From Moniliella sp. 'wahieum' (Eukaryota): a stretch of DNA of 64,000 nucleotides. Within the stretch, counting starts at the first letter, position 1. Every line of letters begins with the position of its first letter. The notes beneath the pieces were generated by a model. The model saw nothing but the letters and a program-made list of their open reading frames with translations, searched no databases and was not told the DNA's origin. The DNA is taken from assembly GCA_003971905.1 (NCBI GenBank), contig RSEE01000092.1, positions 1 through 64,000 on the forward strand, in the 5' to 3' direction. The translations under genes were made by a program, and so were the position numbers. This document shows positions 3,791 to 64,000 of this stretch, one piece after another.

Positions 3791-4155
3791 AGGAACAAGC
3801 AGCGGCAGCGGACACGAGACAGCAAGCATCGCTCGGGATGCACGCGTCACGTGACGTGTGATACGGCGATCGCATCTCTACTTTCTATATGGGAGGGTGC
3901 AAAGAAAAGTGTGCAACCCTATTGCCCGCCGACCTGCACGTGACGGGTGGGTGGGCTGGCTAGCCAACGATCTTATAAGCCACCGGTGGGTGACGTGGCA
4001 ACACACTCGTCACTAGTGACGTCACGGCAATGACCTCGTGAGTCACTAGAGTCACTCGACCAGCCACGTGGTCCCTAGTGCTCGTCAGGGCTATGTTGCT
4101 CGGGTGCGTCCGTCTGTCGCCCGCTTGCTCTCCTTTGCCCCACCTACACCACCCC

Positions 4156-5527
4156 ATGGCGCTCACCTCGGCCCCCATCACCATCCATTCGGCAGAAGAG
4201 GTGGTACCGCCGAACCTTGTGCCAGGAGATGTGCACCCGCTCGGTCCGCTGGACTGGTACGCCTTCCCGCCGTCACCATCCCCCATCTCTACCTCTACTC
4301 GCGCATAGAGGTCACCCGGCTGCGCGAGGCCCTCTTGGAGCTGCTCAAGGCCTACCCGCATCTTTGCGGTCGCCTCTGTTCCGGTCCCTCGGGAAAACCC
4401 CAAGTCGATCTGACACACCTGGGAGGCGTTAAACTCTATCTTGCGTCCTCGCCTGACAAGCTGGTATTTGACCCCAGTGTCAACTTTGTCGATCAGCTCA
4501 CCCCGCAAAAGGGGGGTGATCTTCTTCCTCCCTTTGACGCGGTCCATATGGATATGGAAAAGCTGAAAGACGAACCAATTTTCTCCATCCAAGTCACTGA
4601 ATTTGCCAATGGCGTTGCTGCCCTCTCGGCGCGGATCCACCATATGGTTTGCGACTTCGGAGGGAGCATGCGGCTGCTCCGCAACCTTGCACGCCTCTAC
4701 CGCGGCGAAGCATTAGAAGTGCCATTGCTGAACTCTTTTATGGCCGACAAGAGCTTCACCCCCGAAGAACGGAAAGCAGCACTTGAATTTCGCCCCAGTG
4801 TGTATACCCTTGTACCGCCTGAGACGGGTGAATGTGCCTGCTCCGCCTAAGACCGAGGGGAGATTTTTCCGCATTACACCAACGGAGATTGCGGCCCTTA
4901 AACATGCCTGCGGACGGCCTGCAACAGGCGACAAATCTACGTTCTCTACATTTATCACGCTCTCTGCCGTTCTGTACTGCATCGTCTTCCGCGCTCGCCA
5001 GACTGTCGATCCAAAGCACCATGCCACGCATGCATTCACCTCCATGGATATGCGGCGCCCGGATCGACTTAATCTTGGCGAAAAATACTTTCCTAACGCC
5101 ATTCACCCCTTGCCTATGGAGTTTGATCCAGACCTGTTAGCCCATGGGACGTTGGCTCAAGTGGCACAGGCAGTCCACGACACGCTTCAGCGCCCCACAG
5201 GAGAGGAAATGAAGCGCACAGTCGAATGGCTCGCTGCTGCCCCCCGCTGGAATGAGGTACACTCCACCTACCCTTGGTCCAAACCAGGGGGGTTCATGAC
5301 GACGCATTGGTTGTACAGCGGGATGTACGACGGGATGGACTTGGAGCAAGAAGCGCCATTGGTGGCTTGCCCTCCATTTGAGGAGTACAACGTCCTGGAT
5401 GGCCTCGCTTTCTTCCTCTCGTCGTCAGCCAGGCTGTGTGGACATGAAAATGTCCCTGGCCCAGAACGTGTGGGCGGTGCTGGACAGCAAGGGTGGTTTG
5501 GTTCAGGCTGCTCTCCAGGCTCAGTAA
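4156..5527 (+). CDS. CoA-dependent acyltransferase (transferase/BAHD-like, HxxxD)
   Basis: LGPLD near the N-terminus, LREAL..LL..YP.L.GRL, IQVTEFANG...IHHMVCD (HxxxD), DMR.R...YF.NA; split across three or four frames. Confidence 0.85.
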
Positions 5528-6563
5528 CCGAACGGGCTGATGGATCTTACCGAGGGCTTCCGAAACGACATGCGGTAGTGTATGGCGCTCAACATCCTTG
5601 TTTCTGTCGTCTGGGAACCTGTTGTCATTGTGAGTCGTCCCCTCTCAACGTACCAAACTATCATTTGCACCATGCAGGCAGAGACGGGGAAAACGCTGGC
5701 ATATACACTCCCTCTAGCTCGCCGCTGACTGACGCTATGGCTGTAGCGGGCACCTACCAAAAGTAGAAGGTCACTAGTGTCGCCACCACGCAGCATCCCT
5801 CTTGGTTCCCATTACGCGTATTTATCGGATGTTGCGAGAAGTGGTCCACATGCAGTCGCCTCCGTGACGCTCTCGGCCATGATGCGCGCGATCCACCTCT
5901 ACCACTGATGAAATCGATTTACCCTCTCTCGCTTCAGGTGCTTCGGGCCCTCTTCAAGCTTCGCGCCCAGCACCCAGCTCAGTGGATGGAGTTGGCAGCG
6001 CATCTACATGTTGGTACATCTCATCGATTGTCGGTCATCGCCGTAGGTGGAGAGGCCCGTGCGGTGGGGATGTGTGGGGGTGCGGCTGGGTCCGAGGAGG
6101 AGGCGCTGGGAACGCGTGGCGCCTCTGCCACCCAGACACAGAGCACTGCTGGGCAGGACACAAGCGCCCTGCCAGAAGCATGAAGCCTGACGCTCTTTTT
6201 GACTCTTGAAGCTTGAAGCTTGAAGCTTGGAGCTGGAGTTGCCTTCGCCCATCGCCCATCGCCCATCGGCCGTCCCCCGTCAGAGATCATCGTTCAGAGC
6301 GGGCGGCTGAAGAACAGGGCTCAGAATGAGCAGCTGGCGGAGCACACAAGTTTTGCCCCTCGGATGCTGTGCTAATGTAACGCGGCTCCTATATGCGTTA
6401 ACGCCCTGAGGTTAGCCTGGGGCCTGATGGGGGCTACACATATAATAACCGGCGGCGGCCAACTCGCAAAACTCATCCGCGCTCCGTTGCCCCACCCCCG
6501 CCGCTTTTTTATCCCCTGCAGCTGGCACCAGCCCCCCCCCCGACCACCATCCTGCCACCAACA

Positions 6564-6892: not shown

Positions 6893-7582
6893 GAGTGAAC
6901 TCACAGCACTAACCACCAGACATCACAGTACGGCACGCTAGCGTAGCCAGCCAAGTCTTCGGTGTGGCGACTGACGCATAACGATTCAATTCTTCCCCTG
7001 CTTTCGTCTTTTTCCCACCACCCTTATCGGCGGTTAGCCTTTTGGAGTGCATGGATTTCGGCTCTGGACGACCAAGATGTGATGAAAAGACGCTGTGTTC
7101 ATACGACTGTTCATACTACGACTACCCTTTGGCCGCGACTGACGACATAGAATGAGGGCCTAGGGCATTCGGTCCCATGTAGCGCCACTGGATACACATA
7201 GCAGTAAGGCCAACAGAGGGCGTAGCAGAGTGGATATACATGAGAGCCTCTTTCCAAGCGTCACGCGTCACCGCGTCACCGCGTCACCGGTCACCGCGCG
7301 ACACCATAAAAAGGAGGCTTGGGAGGGGATGCATCATCGACATCATCCATCATCCATCACGACGCACACGAGCACACACTGCACGCGTGCGCGGCGTGCT
7401 TTAACGGTCAATCATTCAGCGCTAGGGTTATGGCGTGGCGCAAGAACAGGCGCTAGGGTTGCCCCTGCCGTCCTGTCCTGGCAGGCAGGCGAGGCGGCGG
7501 CGACGACCGACCAGTCAGCGTCCACGCACGCACCACCTTCTGCACCTCTTGCGTCGATCCAGCCCCCCGACCAAAAACCACC

Positions 7583-10500: not shown

Positions 10501-11707
10501 GAGAGGTATGCAAGCAAGGTGGAAGGGGCGATGCTCAAGCAGATGGGCGAGCGCAACGATGGGGTCCGTGGCAAGGGAGCAAGGGCGTTGGTGGAGGTGG
10601 TGAGGTCGATGGCAGGACAAGTGGAGCGGTCGGGGGCGTTGGATGGCCTGGTGGAGGCGATTGAAGCGTGTGTACTGGACTGCCTCGGCGATGCGCACGA
10701 GACGACGTACTGACGGATGCTTAGGGCGCGGGTGGAGATGAGCGATGCAGCATGGCTGTTCCCGCGCATGGTGCCGCTGCTCTCGGATGCGGCGCTGGGG
10801 GGCGCTGTGCTGCAGGGCCTCCTCGTCTCGGTGGGGCAAGCAAAAGACGCTTATGTGGGTGCTCGATCCGCACGCATGCAGCTGTGATACTGACGCCCTG
10901 CCCCTCTTCCCTCTTCCTCTTCCCCACCAGAACAACGAGGCCGTCGGCAGCATCCAGCACTGGATCCAATCCAGCCCCGAGCGGCTGCGGACCCTGCTGG
11001 ATCTCGTCCAGGCCACGGCCCAGACGAGCCTCGCCAAGAACAAGATCATGGTGCCTGTCCTGCGCTTGAGCTCGGCCGTGCTGCGGGCGAGCTCGACAGA
11101 CCGCCCGGACGGCCTGGACGGCGTGTATGTCCCCCCCCCCCCTTCCCTGATGACGCGCATGTGGCTGACCATGGACCGTTGATCCCGCCCAGGTTGGAGC
11201 AACTAGGCAAAACCGCGCTCCGAGCCTTGCCCAAAGTCCGCAACGTAACCCGGCTCGACGCCTCACGCGATTTGTACGTCCCTTCCTCCTTCTTCCTAGC
11301 GAGTTGACCCCTCCCCTCCCCCAACCCCTAGCTGCATCGCCCTTTTGTGTGCGAGCAAAAAGCCACTCCGCGCTCATCCACCATCTGGCCTGGTTCCTGG
11401 CTCATCCCGATCCCAGTGTACGCCTCTCTCACTCCCCTACCTTCTGTGGACCAGAACGAAAAAAAAACTAACACCCCTCAACCCTCCTTGTGCTCAGATA
11501 CGTGTGAGCACGAGCGAGGCCCTTACACTTTCGCTGGATGACCTACTAGACGCCCACCTGGACGAAGCAAATCCGGATGGGCAAGAGCAAGCACGAGATG
11601 AGTGCGAAGACCTGCTGCTCTCGACAGTGTGGACTTCCTTGCCGGACGCTCAGTCGGCCGCGGCGCGTGTGAAGACCTGTCTCCAGGCTATACTCTCGCC
11701 TACGTGA
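7583..11707 (+). CDS. TBCD: Tubulin-specific chaperone D (cofactor D), multi-exon
   Basis: LDPY.EQ...LLDPYL, RIRGYKTI, WEVRYTLLLWLSLVCMIPFDL, VRYSAAKGVARI, ACCDREVSIRRAASAAFQE, DDYSVDRRGDVGSWVR; several GT..AG introns. Confidence 0.95.
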
Positions 11708-12045
11708 TCGCACCTTGCATGCCATTTGCCCTCCAATCCATGGCTAGCATCCTAAAGCCTATCATGTTAATCCACGAACACTGGTGATGAGCATCCATAT
11801 CGCATAGCACGATCTCATGGTGCAGTCGCCTGAAACAGCCATCTCGCGACGCACCTCCGTTCGTCGAACTGTGCGGGATAAATCAAAACAGGATGAAAGT
11901 TGTGTAAGGTAGAAATGAGGGAGGAAAACGAAAAAGTGGGTAGCAAAACAATCAACATTATTCAGATCAGAGAAAGTAGTCCGGCACCCGCCGTGAAACA
12001 AGTGACTCTCCCGCCCGAGGTGCCGGGTCAAACTGCAAAAAGGTA
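11483..12045. repeat. Direct repeat copy 1 (TBCD last exon, intergenic, PP2A 3' end)
   Basis: Near-identical to 15257-16058; contains an orphan copy of the PP2A C-terminal codons (..VPDYFL*) on the minus strand. Confidence 0.95.
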
Positions 12046-12052
12046 GTAGCCC

Positions 12053-13104
12053 TCACGCGCAGCTCTTGAGGACGTTGATAAACTCCTGAAACCCGGGCGC
12101 AGTGGGACTCGTCAAAACATTGTCATGACCGTGGTTTGTATCGATGAAGAGCGAGTTCGACAAGCCAGCAATGTTGGCGAAAGTAGTGATGTCCCCTCGC
12201 AACACCTCTAGTCCACCCGCCGAGACAAAGACTTTGTCGGATGAGGGAAGAACGGCAGACCAATCGATGGTGTCCTTGAACGGATTTTGCAACGGGGCTT
12301 GGACTGCCTCCACATCGGGGAGATAAAGGAGGGCTGCCTCGCGGAGGTACTTTGCGGTGATGATATCAGAATTGTTGTTGCTCGCCAGGTGCCGTTGGTT
12401 TCGGTCGGATACAAGTTGACCCACGGGCTCACAAGACCAACGCACGACGGTTTGGCTGTAATGGATGGGGCAACGAGAGAGGATGTGCCAAGGTGCGGGC
12501 CACCTCAAGGGCAAGATGGCCCCTGCTGAGTCACCAGCGAGGATAATGTTGCTGCTCGATTCGGAAAGACGGTTATAAAACCTCGGCCGCTTGCTGGAGC
12601 TGCGTGGGGAAGGTATAGTCCGGAGCGACGTTGTAGTCAAGCCACAGGATGGATAGACGGTCGTTCGAAAGCTTGATAAATGTTTTGCATCGAGATTGCG
12701 ATTGTCGGCAGCATACCAGTCACGTATGCCCCACCGTGGAGATAGAAGAGCACCGGGTCGTCTTGCGTGCGGTTCTCAGCCTCAGTGAACAGCTCACACG
12801 GTCGGAACTCACGTAAGTGAGATCCGTGGCGAACACAGCATTCTTGTTAGGCATTGCGTCGGTGGCAAATGCCTCGCATTGCTCCAGGGTAAACGGCGGG
12901 ATCAGGCGGGAAGCTTCAGAGGGGGAAACGTTGTTCTCCAACGCCGAAGCAAAGAATCCCAGAATGCGAGACTCGATTTGGCACCGGATCGAACGGGCTG
13001 ACGGTGGGGAAGGTCAGGCGCTTGGCCATCTTGCCAAACGTGGGGAACGCCTGGACAGCGACTCCACCAGCGGAAAGAGTGAAAGCAATGTTTGCGAGCT
13101 TCAT
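12053..13104 (-). CDS. Secreted alpha/beta hydrolase (Say1/Mug180 steryl acetyl hydrolase or HSL-like lipase)
   Basis: Signal-like [35 protein letters not shown] (GxSxG); [20 protein letters not shown]; frameshifted. Confidence 0.85.
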
Positions 13105-14001
13105 GATGGCGGAATTGATGAGGAGGTTTGTGTGTGGATGGGAATCGAGCGAGGCAGATCGACGAAAATCTCACCATTTATAAAACAAGATGCGATTTCT
13201 CTCCCTACCGGAAATGCGCGATATTGGACGGTCTACATCTCGGCGGAGCCCCATTTCGGTGCGCGAGTGGGGTTCCAGCTGCTGTCAATGTATGTAAACC
13301 TCATAAGGCTGAGAGATGAGCGATCTGAAGGCAGCATCCTACCTACACCCAAGGAAGTGTTGGTTGGCACCGACAACATTACCAGTGGAGTATACTGGGA
13401 ACCCGCACATCATGTCATGATATCATTCTTTTGTCCATGTCATAGAAGGTACAAATGAACTACTTAGAAGGGGAAAATGCGCATGTGTGGCGTGCCGCCA
13501 GTGAGCCTGTCCAGGCATGTTTTCCGTACAGAAGTTGTCCTTTTTGACGGGCCCCCAGATTTCGGGTTGTTGGGATCCTTGGACCGGTGTGGGGTACTGA
13601 GTACTGAGGCTGCTATGTATCAGCGCAACGGCTACGTGATCAATAGAGTGCGCCACAGTTATAGTGCGGGTTCAGTGCAGTGGACTAATGACCCAGTGCT
13701 AGTGGCTCTGCTTATTAGTAGAGGCAATGCAGGGAACATTGAAGGAGCCATAATGCAATAATGTGCATAATGCATAACGAGCAAGTAGTAACTAGCTAGT
13801 ACTAAGTAACCGGGCATATTTCAAGAAGACGTGTGTACTACTCCCCAGAAAAAGAAGCGATGCATCACAGGCCTTTTGCCTGCATGTGGGCCGGTTTGGG
13901 GTTTTGCATTAATACTATGGTTGGGCGCTCTTACATGGCAGATGTCTGCATTCAGTACGTACTCCAAATGTAATTAGTCCCGGCGGGGAGCTGCATACAA
14001 T

Positions 14002-14077
14002 CGTCCATTTCATTGACAGAGCTTAAGGCTGGGACAGCGGGAACGCTACGTCTAAACCTAACCGTTCATCTTGCGGG
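14002..14077 (-). mobile_element. Isolated 3' UTR fragment of the CRE-like retrotransposon at 60.1-62.2 kb
   Basis: Reverse complement reads CCCGCAAGATGAACGGTTAGGTTTAGACGTAGCGTTCCC...CAATGAAATGGACG, matching 62134-62210 with few differences. Confidence 0.85.
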
Positions 14078-14356
14078 CGTGAAGCCTGAGGCCCTAAGGT
14101 TGGCCTGAGGTTGCTCAAATTCACATAAATGAGTTCCCGAGATGTCTCATCTACGTTCGCCCGCGTGTGGGGTGCATGTGACATGTGACATGTGAGGCCT
14201 GTGCGGCCCTGGCAAAGGCGGGTGCATTCTGCCAGTGTGCAATTATAGGGTGCACTCTGGGATCCTGATAGATCGGCTGCAGAGCAGCCTGAAAGCGTCA
14301 AGCTTCAGGTGAAGCTTCCGAAGCTTCAGACTAAGGCGAGAGAGGGCAAGGGGTAG

Positions 14357-14579
14357 TGTCGAGATCAGACCCATCTGGTCACACATAGTCACCACAGGTT
14401 GGCTGGACCCTAATTTGTTCTAGGCCCTGTTTCCCCTTTGTCTATGCTTCCCCTTCTTTCTCGGTATGATATTGACTCGGTTAGCATGTTCTCTTCTTCT
14501 CCGAGGTACATATGCCTCGCCTTTTTCCTCTCGATGAATATATGATCCTCATACTTCTCTCCATCTCCATCTCCTGTCA
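14357..14579. repeat. Dispersed ~220-bp repeat, LTR-like (TG...CA), copy 1
   Basis: Colinear similarity to 38223-38440 (TGTCG.GATCAGACC..., ATGTTCTCTTCTTCTCCGAGG, CTCGATGAA, CATCTCCTGT). Confidence 0.75.
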
Positions 14580-15378
14580 CATGTCACATGTCACATGTCA
14601 GGCCCAACAGGCAGGCCACAAAAGCCTTCAAGCACACGTATATGTGGTGAAGACCTGAAGCTTGAAGGCAGGAGATCGGAGACAGGAGACCCAGAAAAGA
14701 GAGATGGAGCGGGTAGCCGGTAATCCCGGTTAACCGTTCGGTAAGGTGGGGTGCGGGGTACGCAAGGGTACGCAGTACGTAGCCTGTAAGAGGAACCCTT
14801 CCGCCTAATACGCGAGCGTCACCGGTCACCGGTCACTGATTCTTGAGGCTTAGAAGTTTGAGATCGACTTTCGACATGAGAGCTTCAGGCCTAGTATCAG
14901 ACTACCCTCTCACATATTCAACTGTTGGGATCTTTATTTGCAGGCATGTAATACCATTGACGCAAGGTACCGGACTGAACTGGCCTTTGGTCCTAAGGCG
15001 GCCTGAGGCCCTGAGTACTTTACTGAGTGCTGAATGTGGTACAGTGCCAATCTGGGTTCGGGGACTGCAAACGTGGTCTTCTGCTGCCATCTGGCTGGTG
15101 GCGGAGCATATATAGCAAAAACGAAACGGCGCGCGCGTCCGGCTTCTTCGTATTGAGACCAAGTCTACTCGATCTGTCCTCTCTCTCCCCTAACCCCCCT
15201 CCCCCAGTGGGTCGGTTCCTGACCTGCTGCAGCCTTCAACGTTCAACGTCCTTAAGCCTTCTTGCGCTCAGATACGTGTGAGCACGAGCGAGGCCCTTAC
15301 ACTTTCGCTGGATGATCTGCTAGACGCCCACCTGGAAGAAGCCAATCCGGATGGGCAAGAGCAAGCACGAGACGAGTG

Positions 15379-15620
15379 TGATGAGGCCTGGAGTCCAGAT
15401 GGTCCTCGAGGGTGATGCAATCGCATAGTGGTGGTGGTAGTGGTCTAAGCCAACCAGCAACGCCTACAGAGGAACATCAAGCAGCGAGTCGCCACCAGGG
15501 GCTACGCTGCGGAACAAGGAAAAACAGGAGAGAAAACAACGGAATTCCCAGGCCAGAGGAGGAACTGAAGGGACATTGGCCAAAACACGAGCCACCTGAG
15601 GCCTCCCTGATGGCTCAACA
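15379..15620. mobile_element. Solo LTR (242 bp) with 5-bp target-site duplication GAGTG
   Basis: Absent from repeat copy 1; begins TGATGAGGCC, ends GGCTCAACA; GAGTG at 15374-15378 and 15621-15625. Confidence 0.9.
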
Positions 15621-15980
15621 GAGTGCAAAGACCTGGCTCTCGACAGTGTGGACTCCTTGCCGGACGCTCAGTCGGCCGCGGCGCGTGTGAAGACCTGTCT
15701 CCAGGCTATACTCTCGCCTACGTGATCGCACCTTGCATGCCATTCCTGCCCTCCAATCCATGGCTAGCATCCTAAAGCCTATCATGTTAAACCACGAACA
15801 TGATGATGAGCATCCATATCGCATAACACGATCTCATGGTGCAGTCGCCTGAAGCAGCCATCTCCCGACGCACCTCCGTCGTCGAACTATGCGGGATAAA
15901 TCAAAAGAGGATGAAAGTTGTGTAAGGGGAAATGAGAGAGGAGAACGAAAAAGGGGGTAGCAAAACAATCAACATTCAGA

Positions 15981-17071
<1,091 letters not shown>

Positions 17072-17957
17072 GGCTGGGTCCGGGGATACGGGGGAGGAGA
17101 GGGGGAGAGGAGGGGATGGCGATGGCGGTGGTGGTGGTGAAGGTGGTGGTGAAGGTGGTGATGAAGGTGGTGGTGGCGGTGGCGGTGGCGGTAGTGACTG
17201 TAAGTGACTGTAGTGGCTCGCATGCTCCTGGCGGGGCGGACTCGGCTGGGTTAGTACATTTGAACTTAAGAGGGATCTGAGTAGCCGGCGACGCCAGCGA
17301 CAACCCTAGCATGCTCGATAAGGATACGAGGATGATCGATGATCGATGATAGATGATTCAGCCCCACTCAGTACTCACTCCGCCGCCGATCTGAATCTGA
17401 CCACACTCAGTGTCGACATCAGCAGCTCCATCCATCGCCATCGCCATCGCCATCGCCGTGATCCCACCGATCCGCTTGTCCATGCGCGTGGTGGTGTGCT
17501 CCCCTGCGGCATCTGCGTGCATTGGGCTAACCGCAGCTTGCCTTTTTCCGTCTCTCCCCAGAAGGACTTAAGGACAGCATCCGCTGACGTGAACAGCCAT
17601 TGCGCTGGAATCCGCAGACGAGGGATCTCTTTGCTAAGCTCTACTCAAAACGCCTATACGCTCAGGCCAGCGTGTGGTCAGATCGATCGACAGTGGATGG
17701 TGGTTGCCCTCACAGTGGTTGTTGGTGATATGACACGTCATTGACATTGGTCATGTCGGCGTCGGTGTGGTCGAGGCAGCAGTGCGTGCCTGTCCGGACA
17801 AAACAGACCAAGCGCCCCCTTCCGCGTGCTCCCGTCGGGACGGACTGCTACCATACATGACATCCACACAGAACAGCCGCCAATGAGCAACACAGATACT
17901 TTACGGTTGCAGACACAAAAGTAGTAGTAGCCCAGAAGCCCCCAACACCAACCCTCC

Positions 17958-42084: not shown

Positions 42085-42098
42085 TGGCTGGCTGGCTG

Positions 42099-42141
<43 letters not shown>
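42085..42141. repeat. (GGCT)n microsatellite
   Basis: About 14 units with one GACT interruption. Confidence 0.95.
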
Positions 42142-42143
<2 letters not shown>

Positions 42144-43277: not shown

Positions 43278-45161
43278 TTACTGAGGCAAGGGGATGGTGC
43301 GTGGGTAATCCTTGCTTGGCTGGATCGCAAAGAAGCGATGCTCCAGGGCTTTCTGGGCCGTGTGCGCTGGTAGGGTCGAGTTCAAGAAGTTGACGGGCAA
43401 GGTCCTTGAACCAATGTTAGGACCGGTACTGTGCTTTTTCGTCCTTGTTGCTGTGTTTCAGCAGTGGGGTATGGGCACAGCCTTGGTGGTGCGCACGTAC
43501 CGTTGGAGAAGAGACGCCTCGCGCTGCTCAGGCGGCAAGCGTTCCAAAATGCACCGGGCATCACACCCAGCGCGCTCTGAAGCGACAGAGAGGCGTGTCG
43601 CTCTGATCAATGTCCTGCTTGTTGGCTTGGTACTGGGCGTACGCCTCCTTTGCGCTCCTTCCAGTCCAAAGGGCGCCTGACCCATCGCCAGCTGCAGCAT
43701 CAAGCACCCAGCCGCCCACACGTCTAGCGGAGCCGACCAGGGATGAGTGCGAAGCAGTGCCTCGGGCGGACGGCAAGCCTTGGGAAGCGCACTCGGGCTC
43801 ATGCTGGGCCGCGCACGAACGTGGCGCGCATCAGACACGTGGACGCTGGAAGAGGAGAGGAAGGAATCGTTTGGCCAGGCTTGAACGGATCGGGGATGCG
43901 CGCAGCAGCATCAGTACTGTCCAGCATGACGTTGTCCGCGGTGAGGTTGCCATGGACCAAGCCCTGGTCATGGATCGAGGCGAGAAAGAGGAGGATTTGC
44001 TTCATGATGGACTGAACGTGTTCCGGGGGCATGCGACGGCCTTGGAGCTGGCGCTTGAGATAGTAGTCCACCGAGCTGGCCTGGCGATCAAACACAATGC
44101 ATAGTCGGGTGCGGTTGTAGAGAAACACGTCGCGCATGCGCGTCCACCCAATCACGTCGGCATTCATCGCGCCGACTGCATGCAGGTTCCGGGCGTGACG
44201 CAACGTCTCGATGCGCCTGGCCTTGTCGGAGCCACTGATACTGATCACCACTGGTTGGTTGGTGACCATGTCAAGCGCGGACACGGCCTCGCCGTACTTC
44301 GTCTTGCCCCGGCTCTTGGTAACCATGTAGCGATACGCGAGAATGCTGTCGCCCATGGTCATATTGGCTGGGCCACAAACTTGCGTCCCACCAATACTGG
44401 CGAGAACGTCCAACTCCGCTGCAACATCGTCCTGTTCTTTTCACCGGGCGAAGAGGCTGCACATGCACATGGTCAAGAGGTTAGCGTTACAGTGGTTGGC
44501 TGGCATTGATGGGGATGGATCCGTACCTTTGCAGTTTGAACGGGAGGAGGAGTTGCAGTGTGCGCAGGAGGTGTGGGGTGGCAATTTGAACGCGAGGAGG
44601 GGTTGCACGCTGAACGTGAGTAGGGATCGGACGTTGAACGCGAGGACGGGCCGGGGCTGCCTCAGGCTTCCGAGTGACCATCGCGGGCGCGGGGGGTGGT
44701 GCCAGGGACCCGAGCATGGTCCAACCTGGCCTTTTGACCGAGGGTCCGCCCATAGCGTTCGTATCCGCGTCTGCGTCCTCATCCTCACCCTCATCCTGGT
44801 GCGTGCGCTTGCGCTGCACCAGATGCGGTGGCGGTTTCTTTCGGATACAGTGGCGGAGGGAGCGGGCCCAGCTCAGGAGAAGGGCGGCGAAGGGCCGGTG
44901 CTGCTGGAAGACGACGAACGATGCGACGAGTGCCGATGGCGCCGGCGCCGTCGATGCCGAGGTGGCGGCCTTTGCGGCGCAGGGCGGGGAAATGCGTTTG
45001 CCCAGCTGCTGGGCGAGGCTGGGGCGGGGGAAGACGTGCGGTAGGGCATAGCGCGCTGGGACGAGACGGACAGCTGCACCATTTTGCAATGGAAGCGGGC
45101 AGTCGTGGTCGTCGCAGAGAGGAGGAAGAGGTGGTGGTAGGTCGGAAAAGACGGCGGGCAT
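43278..45161 (-). CDS. CMGC (CLK/LAMMER-like) kinase-fold protein, probable pseudokinase
   Basis: LCIVFD, IMKQILLFLASIHDQGLVHGNLTADNVML, RPPE, DVWAAGC, LARQLLELDP; long disordered N-terminus. Confidence 0.75.
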
Positions 45162-47184
45162 GCAGACAGGTTAAAAGCAAGGCGTGTGGTGAAAAAATGG
45201 GCCCGATGCGAGTGTAATCTGAAACACGAGGCAGCCATCGCCTAAAAGGAAGCTCAGGTCCCAAAGTAGTACGACCGGTGATCTGGGGGGTGCGCATCGC
45301 ACTCAGGCACGGCGTCTGTGTCTCATCCTGTTGGGCAGCAGGGACGGGTGACAGACGACGCTGCATGGGTGACTATCGATGATGATGCTTGCGGTGATAA
45401 TCGGGCGAGGGCAGAGGGGCAGTGTATGGTGGACAGCAGGGCGCCAGCTGCATGTCTCATAGTAGCGCGCGCCAGTGTCTGCGAAGACTTGGCTCTAGAC
45501 CTGACCCGGCCCCTCTCTGATTTGGGTCTGCGTGCCCTATTCCCGCTCGTCACCCTAACCCCATAGCCCAAGCGGTGGTATGCACCCTAGTGTCCTGGGC
45601 TACGCCAAGCCATCACATATCACCTGCTATCACCCTCCATCACCCCCCCGTCCTAACCCTGCCAGTGCGTCTTCTTCAGGCTCACCACCAAACGACTTGA
45701 GGGGTTTATTCGGTTGGCAACAAGCCCAGCACCATCCTCACAGGCAGCTCAAGGTGCTAACAAAGGGGGGCAGACTGGGGCATCTGCCTGGCTGTGGCTA
45801 ACAACCACATTGACAGCAGAGTACGTATCCCATCCTTGGAGCACATCCTTCCTGCCAGAACTCATACCCGTTCTATCCGGACGCAGGCCGGTCCACGGAG
45901 CAGGATGGCGTCCGATCCTCAAGCTAGTGCGCGCGCCGTTCAGGGCACACCCGCAGTCTCAATGAACCGACGGCTGGGAGGATAAGAAGAGGAACGAGGC
46001 GAGGAAGCAAATCATATAAACACCGACTACCGGGTGGGCCTACGCCTCTGTATGACGCCGAGAGGGAAGCGGCTGCATTCTATTCTACTCACAAGCAGGT
46101 GGATTGCGAGAAGTGAGGCCAAGTACCAGGGACGTGCCCAAGATCTGTGTTACATGTTACCCCAGGTACTATTTGTAGTTATGCCGAGGCGGAGGCCACT
46201 TCGCCATCAGGACTGCTGAGAACATGTTTACTCACTGAAAAGAACTGACTGACGAAGAGTTCCGCGGTGAAGGTTGTGTTCATTGAACGTTCATCGATCA
46301 TCGCTCAGTCATGGTCATGTCCAGATGCACATCATCATCTCATCCACTGCTACTAGCCTATAGGGCCCAGGGCTTAAGGCCTAAGACTCGATTGGGGGTA
46401 CAAACTGCACCAAACGCTGGCTCACCCAACCTGCCACGTCTGAAATGCTTGCTGCGACGGTGGCATCTGGGATGGCATAATTGATTGCGTTTGCAGGGGT
46501 GGAGTTGTGGTTGGTGGTGTGGAACCCAGCGGCAGATTCGGTTCTCCAACCAACGCGTGGTGCTGATGCTGTAGGATGGGGTTTGCACGTTCACAATAGT
46601 TGTGAACCTGGCCTGGTGACCGTAACCAGTTAGTTGGCTTATACGTGTGCGGCCATTTCGAGTGCGTTGTAAATCACCTACTCCTATTGCATAGGCGGGT
46701 TAGGCCAGGGCCCCGCGGCAATTATATGCGCACCAATATCCCAAAGTGATGCGTTAGGGTTACGTGGCTGCTTCCTTGGGCCTGAAGGGCTTGGACCTTG
46801 ATTAGTGGACATTGGACTTTTGGCCTTGAGCCTGGCGGGGAGGCTTCCCTGACTGAGTACTGGCGGCAACAGGGGGACATTGTTTTTGTGAACGTTATCT
46901 TAACCCATTATCCATTGCAAGCAGGAGAAGAAGGGCTACTTAATCAGTAGTCAGTTGCGATGATCGACCAATGATCGTAACCGCGTTCACAACGTTCACA
47001 AGCCCAACGTGCAAGGGCAATAAGACAGTGGTAAGGCCTAAGGACTCCTTGGGATGGTCAGGCGACACGAGGCATACCAACGCTGCCACGCTCCTGGTTT
47101 TCATTTCTTTACCACCACCACATCCAGCTCCTTTTCGCCTCACCACCACCACCACCTCTTCCTCCTCCCACCTCGTTCCCTACG

Positions 47185-48801: not shown

Positions 48802-49850
48802 ATGTCTCTCTCTGCCGTCGATCTGGCAAACTATCCCAGTGCGGACCTGCTGCGCGTGCTCGCTGCCCTGCTCCAGCACATTGCCCGCACCAACGACCGC
48901 CGCCGTCCCGTCAGTCCTCCAGGAGCCTCTGTCCCGCCCCCCTCGAGACCGGATCCAACTTCCTCACCCCACGCCCCAGACCATGTCGATCCCGACCCCC
49001 AAGCCGGGCTGGATTGCATCAGTGGCCCGCCGTACATGACCACCGCTGCCCGAGGTGCTCTCACAACCGTCGGCAGCAACCTCTGTTTCCATGCGCGCCA
49101 CGCACCCAGCATCTCGATTGCCGACTACCTGCTGCGCATCCTCAAATACTGCCCTACCACCAACGACGTTTTTCTCTCGGTGATCATCTACCTTGATCGT
49201 ATGAGCCGTATGAGCCGGAGGGGGACAGGCACTTTTGGTCCGGCAGTGCTGAGGTTGTTCCTGTTTCCACGCCCGACCTGCCTACTTCTCTGGCTGCTTC
49301 AGACAGCCCGACCCACCCGTCTACTTTGGCCAAGCCGGAGGCTGTGTCAGCCTCGAGTGGGGCAGATTCCTTGGCACCAAGAGAGGCGGAGCCTGTCTAC
49401 CCCGGAATGAAAGGGTTTGTCATTGATTCGTACAATGTCCACCGTCTGGTCATTGCGGCTGTGACGGTGGCGAGCAAATTCTTTTCAGATGTGTTTTACA
49501 CCAACTCGCGGTACGCCAAGGTGCGTTGTTTTTCTGCTATCTTGGTGGATTGGAACTGAGTATCTGAGTACTGACGATACTGGGGGTGACGTGTAGGTGG
49601 GCGGTCTGCCAGTCGCTGAGTTGAATTCGCTAGAACTCCAGTTCCTGTTGCTCAATGACTTTAACCTCTCTATCTCCTTGGAAGAGTTCCAACGATACGC
49701 GGATCAGCTGATCCAGTTTGGCTCCGGTGCGGCTCAGGATCGGGTTCCCGTCAACGCCCTTTCGAACGTTCTTCGGCCTCTGCACCCTTGCTACACTCCC
49801 AGCATGCCCCATCGACTCCTACTCCTGCCTCCGCATCTTCTGACATTCGC
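48802..49850 (+). CDS. Pho85 cyclin (Pho80/Pcl6/7-like)
   Basis: FHARHAPSISIADYLLRILKYCP, IDSYNVHRLVIAAVTVASKFFSDVFYTNSRYAKV|GGLPVAELNSLELQFLLLNDF; end approximate. Confidence 0.93.
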
Positions 49851-50116
49851 ACGCCTCATCCTCATCCTCATCCTCATCCGCACTTCGCCGTGCCCTAGGA
49901 GCCCGCCCCGTGCCCTGACATTTGACATACGCTTCCTCCCACCGCCTCCACATTTCATATCTTCAGCCCCTCTCCACACTACGGAATCAATTCGCCGGAT
50001 CTTTAAGCTTTATGTGCGGTCGGGCAACAGTAACTTAAGGAGAATGCAATGCAAACAGGGACTAGTATACAAAGGAGGTCAGCCGGGGGCTGGGGGAGGC
50101 CAAGCGATGTGCTCCT

Positions 50117-50602
<486 letters not shown>

Positions 50603-50746
50603 GGCGAGTGTGTGGGAGAGGAAGAAGAGAAAGCAAGTCGGTGGGGGCGGGTGGGGGGGGCAAGGGGGTGGAGGGGGCCAGGCAGTTATATACTCTCTCA
50701 GCGGCCGAGTGGCGCTTGGTGGTCTGGAGGGGCTGTGCCGCTCCCA

Positions 50747-50975
50747 CGTTCACAGCGTTCGCAGTGTTACAGTGGTGCTGCCATTCGCTATTCATCTTGG
50801 CTGTCACGCGTTCACAATCCATTGCAATTTCAAATATCGCCCCTTGCGCCTCTTGGGCGGCTGGCAGGGTTGTGAACGTGGTGTGAACGTGTGAACGTGG
50901 CATAACGCGCGCCGTACGACTCGGCACGAGTAAATGTAAAACGAGTCTTGTGAACGTCTGTGCCCGTTGTGAACG
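50747..50975. promoter_or_regulatory. Divergent H3-H4 promoter with seven CGTTCACA/TGTGAACG motifs
   Basis: Exact copies at 50747, 50809, 50871, 50882, 50890, 50949, 50968. Confidence 0.7.
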
Positions 50976-51215
50976 GTGCACGTTCTCTCGTTCTACGCGC
51001 GTGAGCGCCTGAGCCAACAACGCGAAGGGTGCGTTACGCGTTATCATCCACTTGTCCTCTGTGTAGGTATGGCCTACCGCACACAGCGCACTGTTGTGCT
51101 GAAACTCATCCTACTACCTGCCCTGTCTGTCTTGCCCCAGCAGCTGCCCAACCCACAAGACAGGCCCCCAGGCTAGTGAGATCATCGATCGTTCTGAGTT
51201 GATCGTATCAAATAA

Positions 51216-51686
<471 letters not shown>

Positions 51687-57379: not shown

Positions 57380-60124
57380 GTCGTCGATGGTGCCAAACCA
57401 ACGCGGACGAGCAGCATCCAATAAAGCCCTTGACCAATTACTTGCAGACCTTTGCCGGGCATATATTACGGAAGATGAGAAGGTAGAAATGGGTGTATAG
57501 AAGGGAAACTGAGCATGAGGAGAGATGGCAAACCCATTGCAGCTCATTGATGTACATCTGTTCCCACAGCCTCAGCCTGGAGTCCATTGCACTCCCTAAC
57601 CCTCCGCAATGGCTAGACACACACAATACGAATTAATAAGAACCCCTTGCAACTGTTGTGACGAGGAGATACCTTCCGTTGCGCTTTTGTGTTTGCTTCT
57701 CGCTTCTTTCTTCTCTCCACGATGGGCACCGCTTCCAACTCGGCACTTCGCCCACCTCCGTGTTCGCGATCAGCTGCATATATAATTCTCTCAGTCAGCT
57801 GGGCCATCTGGTCACGGCCAGTTGGTCGCGGCGGCACAATACAGCCACAGTGATGTCACCTTCCATTATGTCTGCAACACGAACCTGAAGGATACGAAGG
57901 GATATGGCACCCCATCGTTTGATCTTCATTCCACCATGTTTGAGGGGAGACAGAAGGGGGACGGCAGAACCCATATGTGTGTTTCTACTTGAGTTACATG
58001 TCCTATACAATGATTATTTCTTCTTATAGCACTCACTCAACTGATCCTCGTTGACTGTCGACATCACATGTCAAGGTCGTGCCTCCCACCCTTCTTGTCC
58101 TGTCCTGTGGACATTCAGCAGTCCGACCCAAACCTCAAGAGGGAGAAGCCTCTTGCCGCATATTCCTCCGCTTCACTTCCAACATCAATTCATCCCCGGG
58201 CTGTCATAATAAAAAAGTGGTGTGCTAGTTCACGGTCCATTAGATGTACTCTGACGATGACCAAAGCAATGTCTAGCTTATGTGTCGCACTCACCTGGCA
58301 TGCCAATTCGAGGGGGTTTCGCTGCGTGACCTCTCCTCTCGTTCAAGAGCAATAGCCTGGCCTTCAGCGGCTATATCTTACATGGTGCCCGCTCGGTCGA
58401 GAATCCACACGGGTGGCACGAGCAAGTACGACCAGCGCTGTGGGACAGAACAAGGCGGCGTCTGTCCCAGCTATGTACGCTTTTGGAGTCTGTGTTGGGT
58501 CGACCGTAAAGGGCATGGCCAAGCAAAACAGACTGTATACAATTGCCACCGAACGATGGCCGAGAAAGAATCCGAGAATGCGGCACGGGGAGTGAGGACG
58601 TCACTCAACGGATGCCTGAACTTCGGGTAAAAAGGTCTTTATTGACGCCCATTTGTCAGGAGGAATCGCATTTCTCTTCTGGTAGATGACTCTCGATCGT
58701 GGTGGTCGTGTGCATCAAATCGACTTGGATTCGGCCCACAATGAAGGAACACCCTCGTCGGCCTGTGCTCGCACAGCATGTGAGCACGCTCAGCTCAGAA
58801 TGAGCGCTGAGGCTCAGCCGCCGCTCATTTTCGACAAATTCGCACAAGTGAGGACAACCGCAAGGGCATCGTCTCTTCCACGTCCAGTAAAGGCATTAAG
58901 AACGTGTCCGAGGTATGCCTGTCAAACGTCAAACGTTCTCCGGATAATGCATCGTTGTTTAACGTGATCGATGATCGAGCCCCACCCACACACTGCGAGA
59001 TCGATGCGATCCGGGGGGGTTGTCTATTCCTGTGCCTATTCGGCGGCCACGCGTGTGGAGGCGTGGCCTGTGGGGCCAAAGCCGCGCTAGTGCGTATGTT
59101 TCGGTGGGAAGTGAGTTTAGCGCGCTTGCATGTCACAGCCTCGAGGCTCAAGAAGCTGGGGTAACCGGTAGGCGCTAAACGCCAACTATAGCCGCCATGA
59201 TTTTGGCAGTGTCCTTGGGCTGGGGGAAGATGTGGAGAATCACTGGGGCCGGCACTGCACCGCACTCTAGCCTAAAACAATAAAGCGCTCTAAAAAGCCC
59301 ACTGCGGGTGCTTCAGTTTCACCGATTGCCGATCACGCCTCTGCTGCATTGCCCTCCGACGGGGTCCACGCTGCCTCCGTCTGAGATGTGCTGTGCAGTC
59401 CAGGGCAACACGGGTCTTCCAGCTTCCCGTTGGGGTACAGGCTGTGGGTACTGGGCTGGGGTGGATACTTCCCTATTGAGGACGAGTGCTACATGGTACG
59501 GGCGACAGTGGGTTAAGCCGATGCATCTTCTGTTGGGCCCCTCCTGCCTCCCTTGCCTGGGCCGGGTTGGGGGGGAGTGTGTATGGTTTGAGATGTGCGG
59601 CGCGCAGCTGCCAGCCACACAGTATTCTATAGTGTTCGATAGGCACAACCAACACAAAGGAGGTTAATGAGGAGGATGTCAACCTCAAAGAAACGTGTGA
59701 CTAATAGAGCAACCATCGGCCAGTGCCAGGGCCTACCAGAGCCCCGCAAGTACCCGGTGCCACCAGTCTTACCCATTTGCCACAAGACAGATCGAAGATA
59801 TTCACACCGAACTCCGGTGACCGGTGAGCTCACTGCCACGGTGTCAGTCACTTGCAGCAGCTTCCCGCTGCCATATGGAGGCCTTTTTTCCCATCTCCGA
59901 TCTCTCATGTGTTTCTCAGCTTTTGCGACCCAGTATGGCCCAAGGCGGGTGGGCCACTTAGCCCGGTCCCTGACCTCAGGCCTCAGGGCTTCAGGCCCTC
60001 AAGCTCAAGCTTGACCTCAAGCCTCAAGCCTTAAGATCTCAACCTGCCTCAACATCAAGCCAGAGGCGAAAAAGCCAGGCCCCAAAGGTCACATGAAAAG
60101 CAAAATTGTAGAGTCAACGTACTC

Positions 60125-62210
60125 TACCAAGCTCCTGTTGGCCTCCCGCCTTACCCCCCTGGAGAAGGCATCGGGAGGTATCCGCCCCATCGCCTGTGGG
60201 GAGCTGATCTACGCCTGTGCGCCAAGGCCATCGCTCGAGCGATCAAACCCAACAGCTGGCTTCTCCCCACCCAGCTGGGAGTAGCATCGCAAAACGGGGT
60301 GGAGCCTATCGTGCGGATGGTCGAGCGCATGACAGCGCCAGGCGGGGAGAACGATGCGGAAATGGGCGACTTCAGCCACGTCGCCATGCTCGACTTTACC
60401 AACGCGTTCAACACTGTGCGCCGTCGCACACTCGCCAAGGCGCTCCATGCCTACGCCCCCCACCTCCTCACCTTGGGCCGGTGGATCTATGGTTCCCCCA
60501 CCCAGCTTTGGGTTGCGTCGGGCGGAAATGAGACCAGCGTCCTGTCGGCAGAGGGCGTGCGGCAGGGCGACCCCCTCGCCCCCTTTTTCTTCTCCATCGC
60601 AGTGCGGCCCACGCTAGAGAAGTTGAGCATTGCTCTGCCGCCGGGGCACCTGGTGATGGCATACCTGGACGACATTACCATTTTCGGTCCAGAGCCAGGC
60701 ATTACCGGCCAAGCTGCGGAGATTTTGGAAGACGACGCGTCAGGCCTCAAGCTCAACCTGCGCAAGTGCGTCGAGCGGGACCGGGACCAGATCCGGGAGG
60801 ATGGTCTGCAGGTTCTGGGCACTTGTGGGAGGGGGGTAGACTGTCGTCGATCGTGGCTCCGGGCCCAACTGGCCAGTCTGAGGGAGAACATGCCTAAGTT
60901 TGATGGCATCACCCGCCAGGGACCCTCTTACTATGGCGGCTCAGCACTCAGACCAAGCTGCGCCACCTGCTCCGCACCATGCAGATGGAAGGAGAGCTAG
61001 ACGAAGTGCTGGCCGAGATCGATGCCTTCATCTGTACGGAGTTCAGACGGATCCGGGGCGACGAGGATCCCCAAGGTGCCAAGGACGACCACTTCGACAT
61101 GCTCATGAGCCTGCCTCTCCGGCTAGGAGGATGCGGCAGCCCGCTTTACTCGTATATCGCGCCCCACGCCCGTGCCGCGGCCAACGAGGTCAACGACTAT
61201 CTTATTACCACTTATGTTGACCGTTCGGGACCGCAAACGGCAGAGGCCAACGCATTTACGAAGCAACGCCAGCGCTGCCGCGAGATGTGGGAGAAAAGTC
61301 GACAGGAGCTGCTCCAGAAGCTGGACGCTGCGATGGTCGTCACGTGGTTGAGCACAGCAACCCGCTGAGCCACAATGGCTCTCCGCCATTCCGTCCGTCC
61401 CATACCTCAGGCTCTCCGACCAGCAGGTCCAGGTTGGTCTCCAGCTCCGCACGCTGTGCCGCACCACGCGCAGCATGTGCAAGTGCGGTGTCATGTCCTC
61501 GCTGGAGCACATCATGTATTGCACTCGCTCCCAGGCCAAGTTTGGAGCGTTGCATGACGCAGTGCGGGAGCCCATTCTCCAGCTCCTACGCTCCATTCCC
61601 GACACCCATGTCCACAACGAACCAATGGTGGAGGACGAGGATGGCCGGAGACAGAGGACACAGCGCACTGACTACCGCGTGATGGACCCGGAGCACTGGG
61701 AGGATCAGGAATGGAGGTCGACCACACGCTGCGCGACACGGGATCACTGGCAGCGCAGAGCGCGTTCCGGAGGGTGGTGCACGCGAGCACCGCAACCCCC
61801 TTGGAACGCCGGGAGAAGGAGCTGCTTCGGATGCTTGAACAAGCAGAATGCGAGAAGAACGCCAAGTACCAGGGACGCACTCAAGAGACGTTTTCCCCCT
61901 GGTTTTGACGACGCGAGGATACTACGGCGCCAAGACGGCGAGCAAGTTGTTTGCGCATTGGAAGGAGTTGGCTACTAAGTCTCAGTGGAAATGGTTCCTC
62001 GCTCGGATGTCAACCACGTTCCTCCGTGTCCATACGCGCTTCCTAGGGTACGGGACCGGATGGCATGAGCCGGAGGGTCCTGATATCCTGGCGATCCCCT
62101 GGTTCCTTGACCCTGGTGGCGCCCCTAAGTAACCCCGCAAGATGAACGGTTAGGTTTAGACGTAGCGTTCCCCTGTCCCAGCCTTCTTAAGTCTGCCAAT
62201 GAAATGGACG
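60125..62210 (+). mobile_element. Non-LTR retrotransposon, CRE/SLACS/Cnl1/MoTeR-like (RT + CCHC + restriction-like endonuclease), 5'-truncated
   Basis: LEKASGGIRPIACGE, QLGV, LDFTNAFN, GVRQGDPLAP, AYLDD, GLKLNLRK, LPLRLGGCG, CKC..EHIMYC, LHDAVR, QRTDY..VD, KNAKY, FPLVLTTRG; stop at 62132 then short 3' UTR. Confidence 0.9.
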
Positions 62211-64000
62211 TTCTCTACCATTTCCACTCTGTTGCATGTGAATAGGTGGAGGTAACCAAATTGGCCAACCAGGTTCATCGATCATCGATCATCATTGATA
62301 TGTATAACACAAGATAACGTCAATATACGCCGCTGTCCACGTCCGGTATGCGTACTTCTGTCTGAGATTTGACGCTTTGACGTCTCTTTCATGCCATAGG
62401 TACGTAGTAGGCCACGTCTCAAGCTCCTCAAGCCCCTGTGCCCCCCCTTTGGTGTCACACGCCCCCCACGAACGGGGGGGTGGGAGGGAAGGGGTGGCTG
62501 GGTGTGGCCTGTGGCGGTACTAGTAGCGGAGAGGAGGGAGCGGGGAGTCCCCCGTGTGTCGATCGGCTTGTGCAACAGGGTGCTGTGGTCGATGCGTCTT
62601 TTGCCAAAGTTGCTGGGGAAGGCGCTCAGGCGCTCCTCAGGCGCCCAGGCCTGAGCAAGCGGTCTGAGCCTCAGTCCTTCCGCTGAGCCGCTGAGGTACT
62701 AAAGAGGGCCCCGGCTGGACAGCTGAGCCACTGAGCTCTCTCACAGCCACATGTGCGGGTACAACAGTGTCCCAGTGTGCTCCGAGATCTGGCCACCATC
62801 GCCGCACCCTGTCGCACCCGCAACGACGAAGACCCGTGGCTCAGCGCCCAGCGCCCAAAAGCGCCAGTAGCCCAGATCTGTCTACGCCAGTCCCTGGCCC
62901 CACAGGCATCTCGACGTCATCGACGTCATCGATCAAGCGTCCCTTCATCAAGCATCCGTGCTCAGCTTGGGCGGCCCAGTCTAAGCACTCAGTCAGTACT
63001 CAGTTGAGTACGTCAAGTGTACTCACATTCTCAGCCGCTCAGCCGCGCTCAGCCAAGCCGCACCGGCGCAGCGCGCCCCGGCGGCCATTCCCGACGACGG
63101 ATAATTGCTGTGCGACACAGTCGAGGGATCTACAGAGTCACTAGGAAAGATGCATCGCATCAGTTGATGAGATTGACCTTAGTGTGACCTAGTGACCTAG
63201 TGACCTACCTTCCCATGCCGATGCGTGAGTCGGGAGTCGTGTTGAATTGTGTGGCTCTGTGCCGCGTGAGTTATTTTGTGACTACAGCGAGAGACCAGCT
63301 ATAGTGACTAGTGACTCTCTCGCCCTTTTCCCCTGGCCGTTGGAGCCTTTGTGTGCCAGACAGCGCGATGGCCACGCCTGCCGCCTCCGCAGCCGGTGCA
63401 GCAGACGACGAAGGTTATATAGTACCTGCCCCACACCCACCACCTGGCCCCAACGCTCGCTGCTGCCCCCCCTTCTCTCCGCTTTCGGCGCCGCTTCTGT
63501 TAATTGGCCCCTCAGGCCTCGGCCTCAACCCTCAACGTTCAACCAACGTTCAACCCTCAACGTTCAATCCGGCGTGAGAACCCCAAGGCGTTTCCAGTGG
63601 CGATTGAATACGAGCTAGCAGAGTGCCCCTGGCATCCATCCCCCTATTGTCCACCAGCTTTCCTCTCGGTGTGGATTGGATGGGAGGGTCTCCCCGCCAT
63701 CTCATCCTCGCCATCTGCACGCCACTTTCAGTTTCGTACCCGTCTGGGTAACCCTTTGCGTGGCCGAGCTGCCCTGCTGGTCTCTTCTGTGATCTCACCA
63801 GTCACTGCAACCTGATCTCTGACCTGCCGCCCTCATCTGGCTTCGTCATCCTCCAATTCCTGTCGGCGCTGAGGCTGATCTCAGCCACAAGTGCATTCTC
63901 GTCCCTCCCCAGCCACACCTGTCCACCCAGACACTCATCCATTGGCAATTCGCTCTCCCTCCTCCACCACAGCAGGCCGCTGTGCTCCGAGCAGCCGAGC

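Follow-up and report, generated by a model that had tools for sequence, protein, structure and literature searches.

The region and its second haplotype

The window analysed here comprises the first 64,000 nucleotides of contig RSEE01000092.1 (hereafter C92), which belongs to an assembly of 69.5 Mb in 223 contigs. Its gene content is fungal and includes tubulin cofactor D, a calcineurin-like phosphatase, kinases, an OPT transporter, a glyoxal oxidase, histone H3 and CDC50. Its non-coding DNA carries short units in which a palindromic tetramer stands between two copies of one T-N-A triplet, singly or chained with a 7-bp period. These units are the subject of this report. The top named matches of the window proteins come from Ustilaginomycotina at about 50% identity, which suggests that the host is a smut-related fungus with no near annotated relative. 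Contig C37 carries another version of the region, about 90% identical to C92, which was taken as the second haplotype in all comparisons. The alignment of the two spans positions 32224-64000 of the window and beyond (137,388 columns, 4,870 substitutions and 1,303 one-base gaps); for most of the first 32 kb of the window no partner of this type was found.

Palindromic spacers in non-coding DNA

A preliminary description of the window had reported 7-bp arrays of TGA or TCA with a varying palindromic tetramer, and all 15 array stretches that it cited read as described. Its suspected excess of palindromic spacers is borne out by counting: a palindromic core is present at 57 of the 118 T[GC]A-N4-T[GC]A sites of the window, against 2.7 ± 1.6 (maximum 8) in 40 third-order Markov simulations, and the palindromic share for any 4-mer spacer in the window is 6.1%. 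Where at least ten of the 16 possible palindromic cores had been claimed, we counted 12 in the window and all 16 in a genome sample of 400 kb drawn from contigs C1-C7. Within this sample a palindromic core occurs at 275 of 536 TCA-N4-TCA sites (both strands) and at 43 of 94 sites of the TAA-N4-TAA class, against a background of 5.8%. The pattern extends genome-wide, beyond the window.

Two features of the earlier wording need revision. The anchor T[G/C]A holds for G- and C-centred triplets but is too narrow, since TAA and TTA obey as well and the anchor is T-N-A. The free mixing of G and C does not stand: the same triplet is used on both sides (26 TGA..TGA, 26 TCA..TCA, 5 mixed), and the mixed sites cited at 4010 and 46284 fall in the weak mixed-triplet class. 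Among all trimer pairs around a 4-mer in the window, TCA..TCA and TGA..TGA alone stand out, TTA and TAA being weaker. The array (TCA-CATG)3, given as 14577-14600 and here placed at 14575-14600, is present but cannot count as an independent event. It is the end of a 225-bp high-copy repeat (14380-14606; at least 29 matches among those listed, mostly 91-94% identical), and its 670 genome-wide matches are inflated because the array belongs to this repeat.

As the preliminary description had implied in calling the arrays intergenic, the units avoid genes. With coding and non-coding DNA separated by our own dicodon coding model, palindromic sites number about 15.9 per 10 kb of non-coding against 1.1 of coding DNA in the window (56 vs 3), and 13.7 against 0.6 in 584 kb (440 vs 15). 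Non-palindromic sites are likewise thinner in coding DNA, less strongly (12.2 vs 2.3).

The core is copied from a flank

The core is fixed by the flanking sequence. If the target is written cd-TxA-ab, with a prime for the complement, the minimal products are cd-TxA-abb'a'-TxA-ab and cd-TxA-d'c'cd-TxA-ab: the core is a flank dinucleotide joined to its reverse complement, and the triplet is repeated directly. Counted as 5-bp direct repeats with a 2-bp spacer, the rule fits 229 of 327 cases for TGA, 207 of 309 for TCA, 41 of 61 for TAA and 35 of 59 for TTA (59-70%), and for the other 60 trimers taken together the fit is close to chance (382/6793). In 83 of 325 TCA-class runs and 28 of 67 TAA-class runs, the 7-bp period continues for exactly 2 bp past one side of the run and not at all past the other, as expected of minimal products with the core taken from one flank; in the TAA class only 1 run is without extension. 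In the window at least one outer flank matches the rule in 40 of 50 runs. Rule-fitting units number 281 in the 400 kb, i.e. about 700 per Mb or about 49,000 in the two-haplotype assembly.

A scan of block lengths from 4 to 9 gave a 5-bp block with 2 inverted bases (rephased: 4 + 3) as the sole strong signal. The corresponding even palindrome with two inverted bases is found in 513 of 1816 cases where 7 were expected, and one or three inverted bases give little signal. A hAT (Ac/Ds) geometry was rejected on this ground, the odd palindrome of Ac type being barely enriched (36/1072 with 17 expected, 9/772 with 0.8 expected). Also rejected was PIF/Harbinger, with its 3-bp TNA/TWA duplication and filler from the element ends: here the duplication covers 5-7 bp, and the filler derives from the host flanks beyond the triplet. 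A factor that reads only the half-sites had already been judged insufficient in the preliminary description, and rightly so.

The frameshifted genes and the one-base gaps in 137 kb might bring to mind a mere artefact of base calling or of assembly from error-prone long reads. This is scarcely credible, given that the units avoid coding DNA, reappear at corresponding positions in the second haplotype, obey the flank rule and match the duplication of a transposon (see below).

Units arise de novo

Between the haplotypes there are 52 seven-base gaps, of which 36 have clean flanks and were kept; the other 16 were set aside. The gain and loss of units, for which the preliminary description had proposed a comparison of strains, could be followed with the second haplotype in their place: units turn over, and 12 of the 36 clean 7-bp indels follow the rule. 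A plain 7-bp duplication beside an older unit at 63530 was left out of these 12. Nine of the 12 are not tandem copies of an adjacent unit, so that plain slippage is insufficient, as had been argued before, and a slippage microsatellite was discarded as the origin. Direction is given by repeats. In one LTR (long terminal repeat) family a unit is present in one copy, whose outer flank differs at two bases, and absent from the 12 other copies listed; for a second repeat, a unit found in one copy is missing from all 3 others. Two more repeat cases fit only loosely.

If the units are joints of two hairpin-opened ends, rarer joints should retain more of the second copy of the duplication, and such joints are seen. 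The remains of the target duplication on either side amount to 5 bp in the main joint and to the full 7 bp in the rarer ones. A 9-bp joint, with both 7-bp copies and 2 inverted bases, occurs at 27 distinct sites out of 471 (17 + 16, six counted twice), and an 8-bp form at 34 of 386 sites; the control centres A-N-T, C-N-G and G-N-C gave 0-4 hits for the 9-bp and 1-10 for the 8-bp form. Joints that keep both overhangs whole number 0 at asymmetric sites. Plain 7-bp duplications at T-N-A show no clear enrichment (44/907, with similar values at control centres). Chains with two different cores, if they stem from successive events, should take each core from the flank on its own side. This is the case: the left core fits the left flank in 10 of 12 chains and the right core the right flank in 11 of 12, where chance is 1 in 16. 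The chain at 42828 (ac-TGA-GTAC-TGA-TATA-TGA-ta, 42826-42846) is among them, its left core matching the left and its right core the right flank, and thus reads as two successive events.

These data bear on two further explanations that the preliminary description had put forward. Template switching during replication, combined with slippage, would have a polymerase briefly copy the opposite strand and then re-copy five bases. Slippage does contribute once an array exists, as 3 of the 12 rule events are tandem. However, this process gives no reason for the T-N-A anchor or for a single geometry, the 8- and 9-bp joints would not be expected from it, and lone TCA sites have symmetric arms at about the control frequency; moreover, an inversion without a loop would suit a sealed hairpin better than a fold-back. 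We consider it quite improbable. The units might otherwise be selected binding sites of a symmetry-reading DNA-binding or chromatin protein, in line with their concentration in non-coding DNA and with the 11 of 21 window runs that have the same length in the second haplotype. Such a protein would not account for the use of all 16 cores, copied from whatever flank is present, nor for the scarcity of perfect inverted 10-mers in the window, the turnover of units between haplotypes and their origin inside dead LTR copies. We regard this explanation as very improbable, and some units may have come into use as binding sites secondarily. Neither proposal is favoured by the de novo units at single T-N-A sites or by a matching transposon family (see below).

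Distribution along the window

Positions are given in window coordinates, without strand. In the first part of the window lies a two-unit TGA-AGCT array (6207-6225) with both outer flanks on the rule, followed by a compound stretch (7261-7293) made of a TCA-CGCG unit, two 8-bp units (TCA-CCGCG) and a TCA-CCGG unit, and by a 9-bp joint at 7332-7347 with both copies of caTCAtc and 2 inverted bases. The single unit TGA-GTAC-TGA (13596-13607) takes its core from the left flank; TAA-TGCA-TAA (13766-13777) represents the A/T-centred class that was absent from the preliminary description. A two-unit TGA-CATG array (14177-14195) is followed by TCA-AGCT-TCA at 14298-14307, whose flanks are off the rule (decayed or chance), as are those of a like unit at 23860-23869. 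Beyond the high-copy repeat, the stretch 14656-14835 holds TGA-AGCT-TGA (14656) and two TCA-CCGG units (14819) with outer flanks off the rule. TCA-ACGT-TCA (15236-15247) has its core from the right flank, and 17331-17377 combines a two-unit TGA-TCGA array (17333) with TCA-GTAC-TCA (17368).

Between 27104 and 27623 there are single units of TCA-GTAC (27104), TCA-GGCC (27183) and TGA-TGCA (27612), every core fitting the right flank. A cluster at 29424-30008 comprises 8-bp units at 29424 and 29560 and 7-bp units at 29468, 29689, 29710, 29730, 29783 (TTA) and 29997. TCA-CGCG-TCA lies at 32109-32122.

From about this point the second haplotype can be compared. TCA-CTAG-TCA (35815-35826) has equal length in both. 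Two TGA-CTAG arrays are shorter in the second haplotype, the one at 36001-36016 by 14 bp and the one at 36933-36948 by one unit (7 bp). TGA-GGCC-TGA follows at 37380-37391, a 9-bp joint with both copies of caTTAtc and 2 inverted bases at 37819-37834, and TGA-AGCT-TGA (41649) with a two-unit TCA-CGCG array (42032) at 41647-42048. Three targets are unaltered in the window and carry a unit in the second haplotype: ttTTAgc (42285-42291; TTA-AATT-TTA), ccTGAcc (45500-45506; TGA-GGCC-TGA) and ggTCAgg (47056-47062), the last standing beside TAA-GGCC-TAA (47032) in the stretch 47032-47062. The reverse is seen within 46148-46384, where TTA-CATG (46150), TCA-TCGA-TCA (46291) and TAA-GGCC (46375) are found and the second haplotype keeps gtTCAtc at 46291. 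A 9-bp joint with both copies of gtTCAca and 2 inverted bases lies at 46985-47000, and 49565-51043 holds TGA-GTAC (49565, flanks off the rule), TTA-AGCT (50003) and TTA-CGCG (51034).

Six units lie at 58064-60749 (58064, 58801, 58965, 59818, 59976 and 60740), three of them off the flank rule; all except 58064 are inside a non-LTR retroelement of 3.9 kb (58319-62208), which encodes a reverse transcriptase (RVT_1) and is haplotype-specific. A 5'-shortened copy of this retroelement occupies C92:94060-95680. Dozens of matches exist for the 80-bp 3' end of the element, one of them at 14004-14080 of the window. The stretch 62275-63004 includes a two-unit TCA-TCGA array (62275), a 9-bp joint on cgTCAtc (62915) that runs into a TCA-TCGA unit, and TCA-GTAC (62993). 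The last stretch, 63303-63566, holds TGA-CTAG (63305) and TCA-ACGT units (63532, 63557); the plain 7-bp duplication of ccTCAac at 63523-63536 is missing from the second haplotype.

Other features of the region are recorded here for completeness. A histone H3-family reading frame occupies 50120-50602 on the minus strand. The kinase-gene segment at 43137-45796 has an inverted paralogue at C92:68768-71472 and many relatives of 70-80% on other contigs, and so belongs to an expanded kinase family. Positions 11050-12361 and 14986-16138 are two similar copies of one repeat, the latter broken at about 15379-15598 by a solo LTR of a family that makes 5-bp duplications. Opposite C92:68676 the second haplotype carries a 151-bp insert with TG..CA ends, a 5-bp duplication and, by eye, tRNA-like sequence.

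A transposon family with a 7-bp target duplication

A pattern search, together with 20 stretches picked partly by flank and contig position, yielded one complete element, whose TIR (terminal inverted repeat) was then searched against the assembly. This gave 19 ends, of which 18 adjoin NN-TNA-NN; without the three ends found by a pattern that demanded this arrangement the count is 15 of 16, the chance value being 3.8% and the ends not all independent. An exact 7-bp duplication is present at 5 of 7 two-ended copies (on C34, C35, C23 and C29, and a 378-bp miniature on C20). The flanks of the C11 copy and of a 170-bp piece on C38 are unmatched, each still being NN-TNA-NN. Five copies of 4.85-4.97 kb share interiors of about 99% identity, subterminal repeats and a solo LTR. 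Of a transposase, the full-length copies retain no more than a broken C-terminal part, which is EnSpm-like and matches the proteins P0222 (E 2e-12), P0199 and P0193 (E 1e-6 to 7e-4). PF02992 is present in P0193 and P0199; P0222 and the remnant frames gave no Pfam hit.

Subterminal repeat arrays, a feature of EnSpm/CACTA elements, are visible at both ends of one inspected copy. The termini, CTCACTG..CAGTGAG, lie two bases outside CACTG and differ from the 5'-CAC..GTG-3' of EnSpm/CACTA, and the duplication is 7 bp instead of 2-3 bp (2-5 bp in the wider clade). As duplication length and terminal bases both depart from the type, we call the family EnSpm-like (EnSpm/CACTA-like) rather than EnSpm; it is young and non-autonomous. 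On either side its duplication exceeds the usual 3 bp by two bases, the same distance by which its ends lie outside CACTG, and donor and target cut positions may both be shifted outward.

The end at C23:153503 lies inside an older unit, which fits a re-use of units as targets. This end and C8:478694 represent a single one-ended insertion, each in a different haplotype. In the C8 copy, target and TIR are separated by two additional bases, which could be P-nucleotides (palindromic nucleotides derived from an opened hairpin) of an aborted excision or a dinucleotide slip. Three full copies at different loci sit on an identical 7-bp target. No TIR ends of the family occur in the window, and scans of about 770-810 kb returned no TIR elements with a 7-bp duplication, the family being too rare for a sample of that size.

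A search of the assembly with PF02992 returned two loci. The C17/C62 transposase gene was considered as a domesticated gene and ruled out, its substitutions being spread over all codon positions and mostly non-synonymous; the C17 gene, present in both haplotypes, is dead. A single-copy EnSpm-like transposase gene with frameshifted long open stretches is located at C34:513408-516695 (minus strand), with a non-autonomous TIR copy 8 kb away; a search of its surroundings revealed no TIR. The C(2)C and H(3)H motifs of the clade can be recognized in it by eye, and a homologue search with a piece of this transposase gave nothing at E 0.001. PF05699 (hAT dimerisation) and PF18758 have no match in the assembly, control genomes being equally silent, and PF10551 has none in the assembly.

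Proposed mechanism

Based on this dataset, we hypothesize that a DNA transposon of the cut-and-paste type left the units behind as excision footprints, made of P-nucleotides from hairpin-sealed flanks, and that repeated visits build the arrays. We hold this to be highly probable. Hairpin-type excision or repair footprints were one option in the preliminary description, which is now supported by the geometry, the de novo units, the 8- and 9-bp joints and the 7-bp-duplicating family. Insertion at cd-TxA-ab would duplicate all 7 bp, as observed for the CTCACTG family. At excision both flanks would be sealed as hairpins exactly at the element border, as suggested by the palindrome being even; hAT, Transib, RAG and a MULE are known to produce such hairpins on the flanks (PMC5499845). 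A host nuclease of the Pso2/Artemis type may then open the hairpins 2 nt 3' of the tip, in agreement with the cut position reported for both enzymes (2 nt 3' of the apex; PMC3299998). The ends would begin at T and bear 4-nt palindromic overhangs, abb'a' on the left and d'c'cd on the right. End joining would mostly retain one overhang and drop the other, giving TxA-abb'a'-TxA or TxA-d'c'cd-TxA with a net gain of 7 bp; this product and its de novo origin are seen in the haplotype data. Each footprint would hold two new T-N-A targets, and later visits together with slippage would lengthen uniform arrays or add a core from the other flank. Coding DNA would largely be spared, as a gain of 7 bp breaks the frame. 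In terms of feasibility, 12 events per 4,870 substitutions amount to 0.25%, and by our own arithmetic the jump rate would be about 1e-5 per copy per generation (assuming 1e-9 mutations per base per generation, 35 Mb and about 10 copies).

Several observations weigh against this mechanism or against the CTCACTG family as its agent. Neither flank matches the rule in 10 of 50 window runs, and a haplotype indel alone gives no direction. No site was seen to be occupied in one haplotype and to bear a unit in the other, and the large haplotype-specific inserts in 137 kb include no TIR element with a 7-bp duplication. The model gives no reason why the +7 joint is dominant, and footprints reported from rice are far more varied (PMC4423477); those of Arabidopsis Pack-CACTA are also described as varied (PMC6379663). 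No autonomous TIR-bounded copy was found in the assembly; both PF02992 loci are without TIRs, and one of them evolves neutrally. About 19 family ends face about 49,000 rule-fitting units. The targets of the family are also narrower: A or T stands at the ±2 positions in 22 of 26 cases, against 11 of 26 at unit sites (Fisher p=0.003; 13 polymorphic sites, including the plain duplication at 63530), and the centre is G or C at all 13 family targets, while it is A or T in 67 of 392 unit runs (about 1/6). Hence, other or older families, or an enzyme without an element, may have written many of the units. We lean towards the CTCACTG-ended EnSpm-like family as one source, and probably it is not the sole one.

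An enzyme acting without mobile DNA, e.g. a domesticated RAG-like transposase, could make 7-bp staggered cuts at T-N-A and leave hairpin ends with no element ever landing. This would be in keeping with unit sites that are broader than the targets of the visible family and that exceed its ends by thousands, and the TIR-less C34 gene offers a candidate. On the other hand, a full 7-bp duplication followed by hairpins at both ends is most simply an insertion and then an excision, a family with exactly this duplication has moved recently, and the resemblance between the C34 gene and the remnant of the family is only about 30%. We consider such an enzyme unlikely. Slightly more doubtful still is its stronger form, in which a domesticated RAG-like EnSpm transposase, the C34 gene being the candidate, would cut open non-coding DNA at T-N-A and steadily rewrite promoter DNA, which would parallel in the germline the junctional diversity of V(D)J joining.

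In most systems excision footprints are so diverse that they can no longer be counted afterwards; here they are uniform enough for a genome-wide reading. If the transposon mechanism is true, the non-coding DNA of this fungus is a fossil record of tens of thousands of jumps by a low-copy family, from which landing sites, rates and end-joining outcomes could be measured by sequence alone. Footprints would also seed palindromic microsatellites by a defined route, each one renewing its target.

Comparison with known systems

The chemistry of P-nucleotides is already known; what sets the units apart is a new target geometry (7-bp NN-TNA-NN) and an unusual scale. Our searches of the open-access literature found no description of the T-N-A flank rule. 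The nearest comparisons for the visible family are in the CMCT clade, for which 2-5-bp duplications and termini mostly starting with CA are reported (PMC12730594); unlike these, the CTCACTG family duplicates 7 bp centred on T-N-A and ends two bases outside CACTG. It resembles CNIRT6 of Cryptococcus neoformans, with a reported 3-bp duplication (PMC12810828), and the carnation CACTA element dTac1 in having TIRs with CACTG, subterminal repeat arrays (a CACTA feature according to PMC4423477) and a transposase remnant similar to PF02992-bearing proteins. Two footprints printed for dTac1 (PMC3859356) are, by our own reading, even palindromes with 2 inverted bases. If the transposon mechanism is true, the duplication length of the CACTA/Transib/RAG clade extends from 2-5 bp to 7 bp, and RAG-like chemistry in a fungal EnSpm-like lineage gains support.

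V(D)J coding joints and Transib excision, as described in PMC5499845, likewise involve flank hairpins that are opened by host enzymes and end-joined. The present units differ in that the joint is flanked by a 7-bp duplication, that one product is dominant and that they pile up in a germline genome. Short insertions of P-nucleotides also mark sites vacated by hAT elements, a few products being dominant in Candida albicans (PMC5873905), and 7-bp duplications are reported for hAT7 and Kyakuja in basidiomycetes, including a rust hAT7 group (PMC12730594). However, Ac/Ds footprints are described as odd palindromes centred on the complement of the bordering base (PMC5873905), a geometry barely enriched in this genome.

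Finally, numerous 10-bp repeats in Ustilago maydis have been suggested to be transposon footprints, a proposal that PMC4081816 cites from an earlier paper. The likeness, by description and not by sequence, is that of short intergenic repeats spread across a smut genome and read as footprints, and the mechanism proposed here would, if true, provide a testable model for these unexplained repeats.

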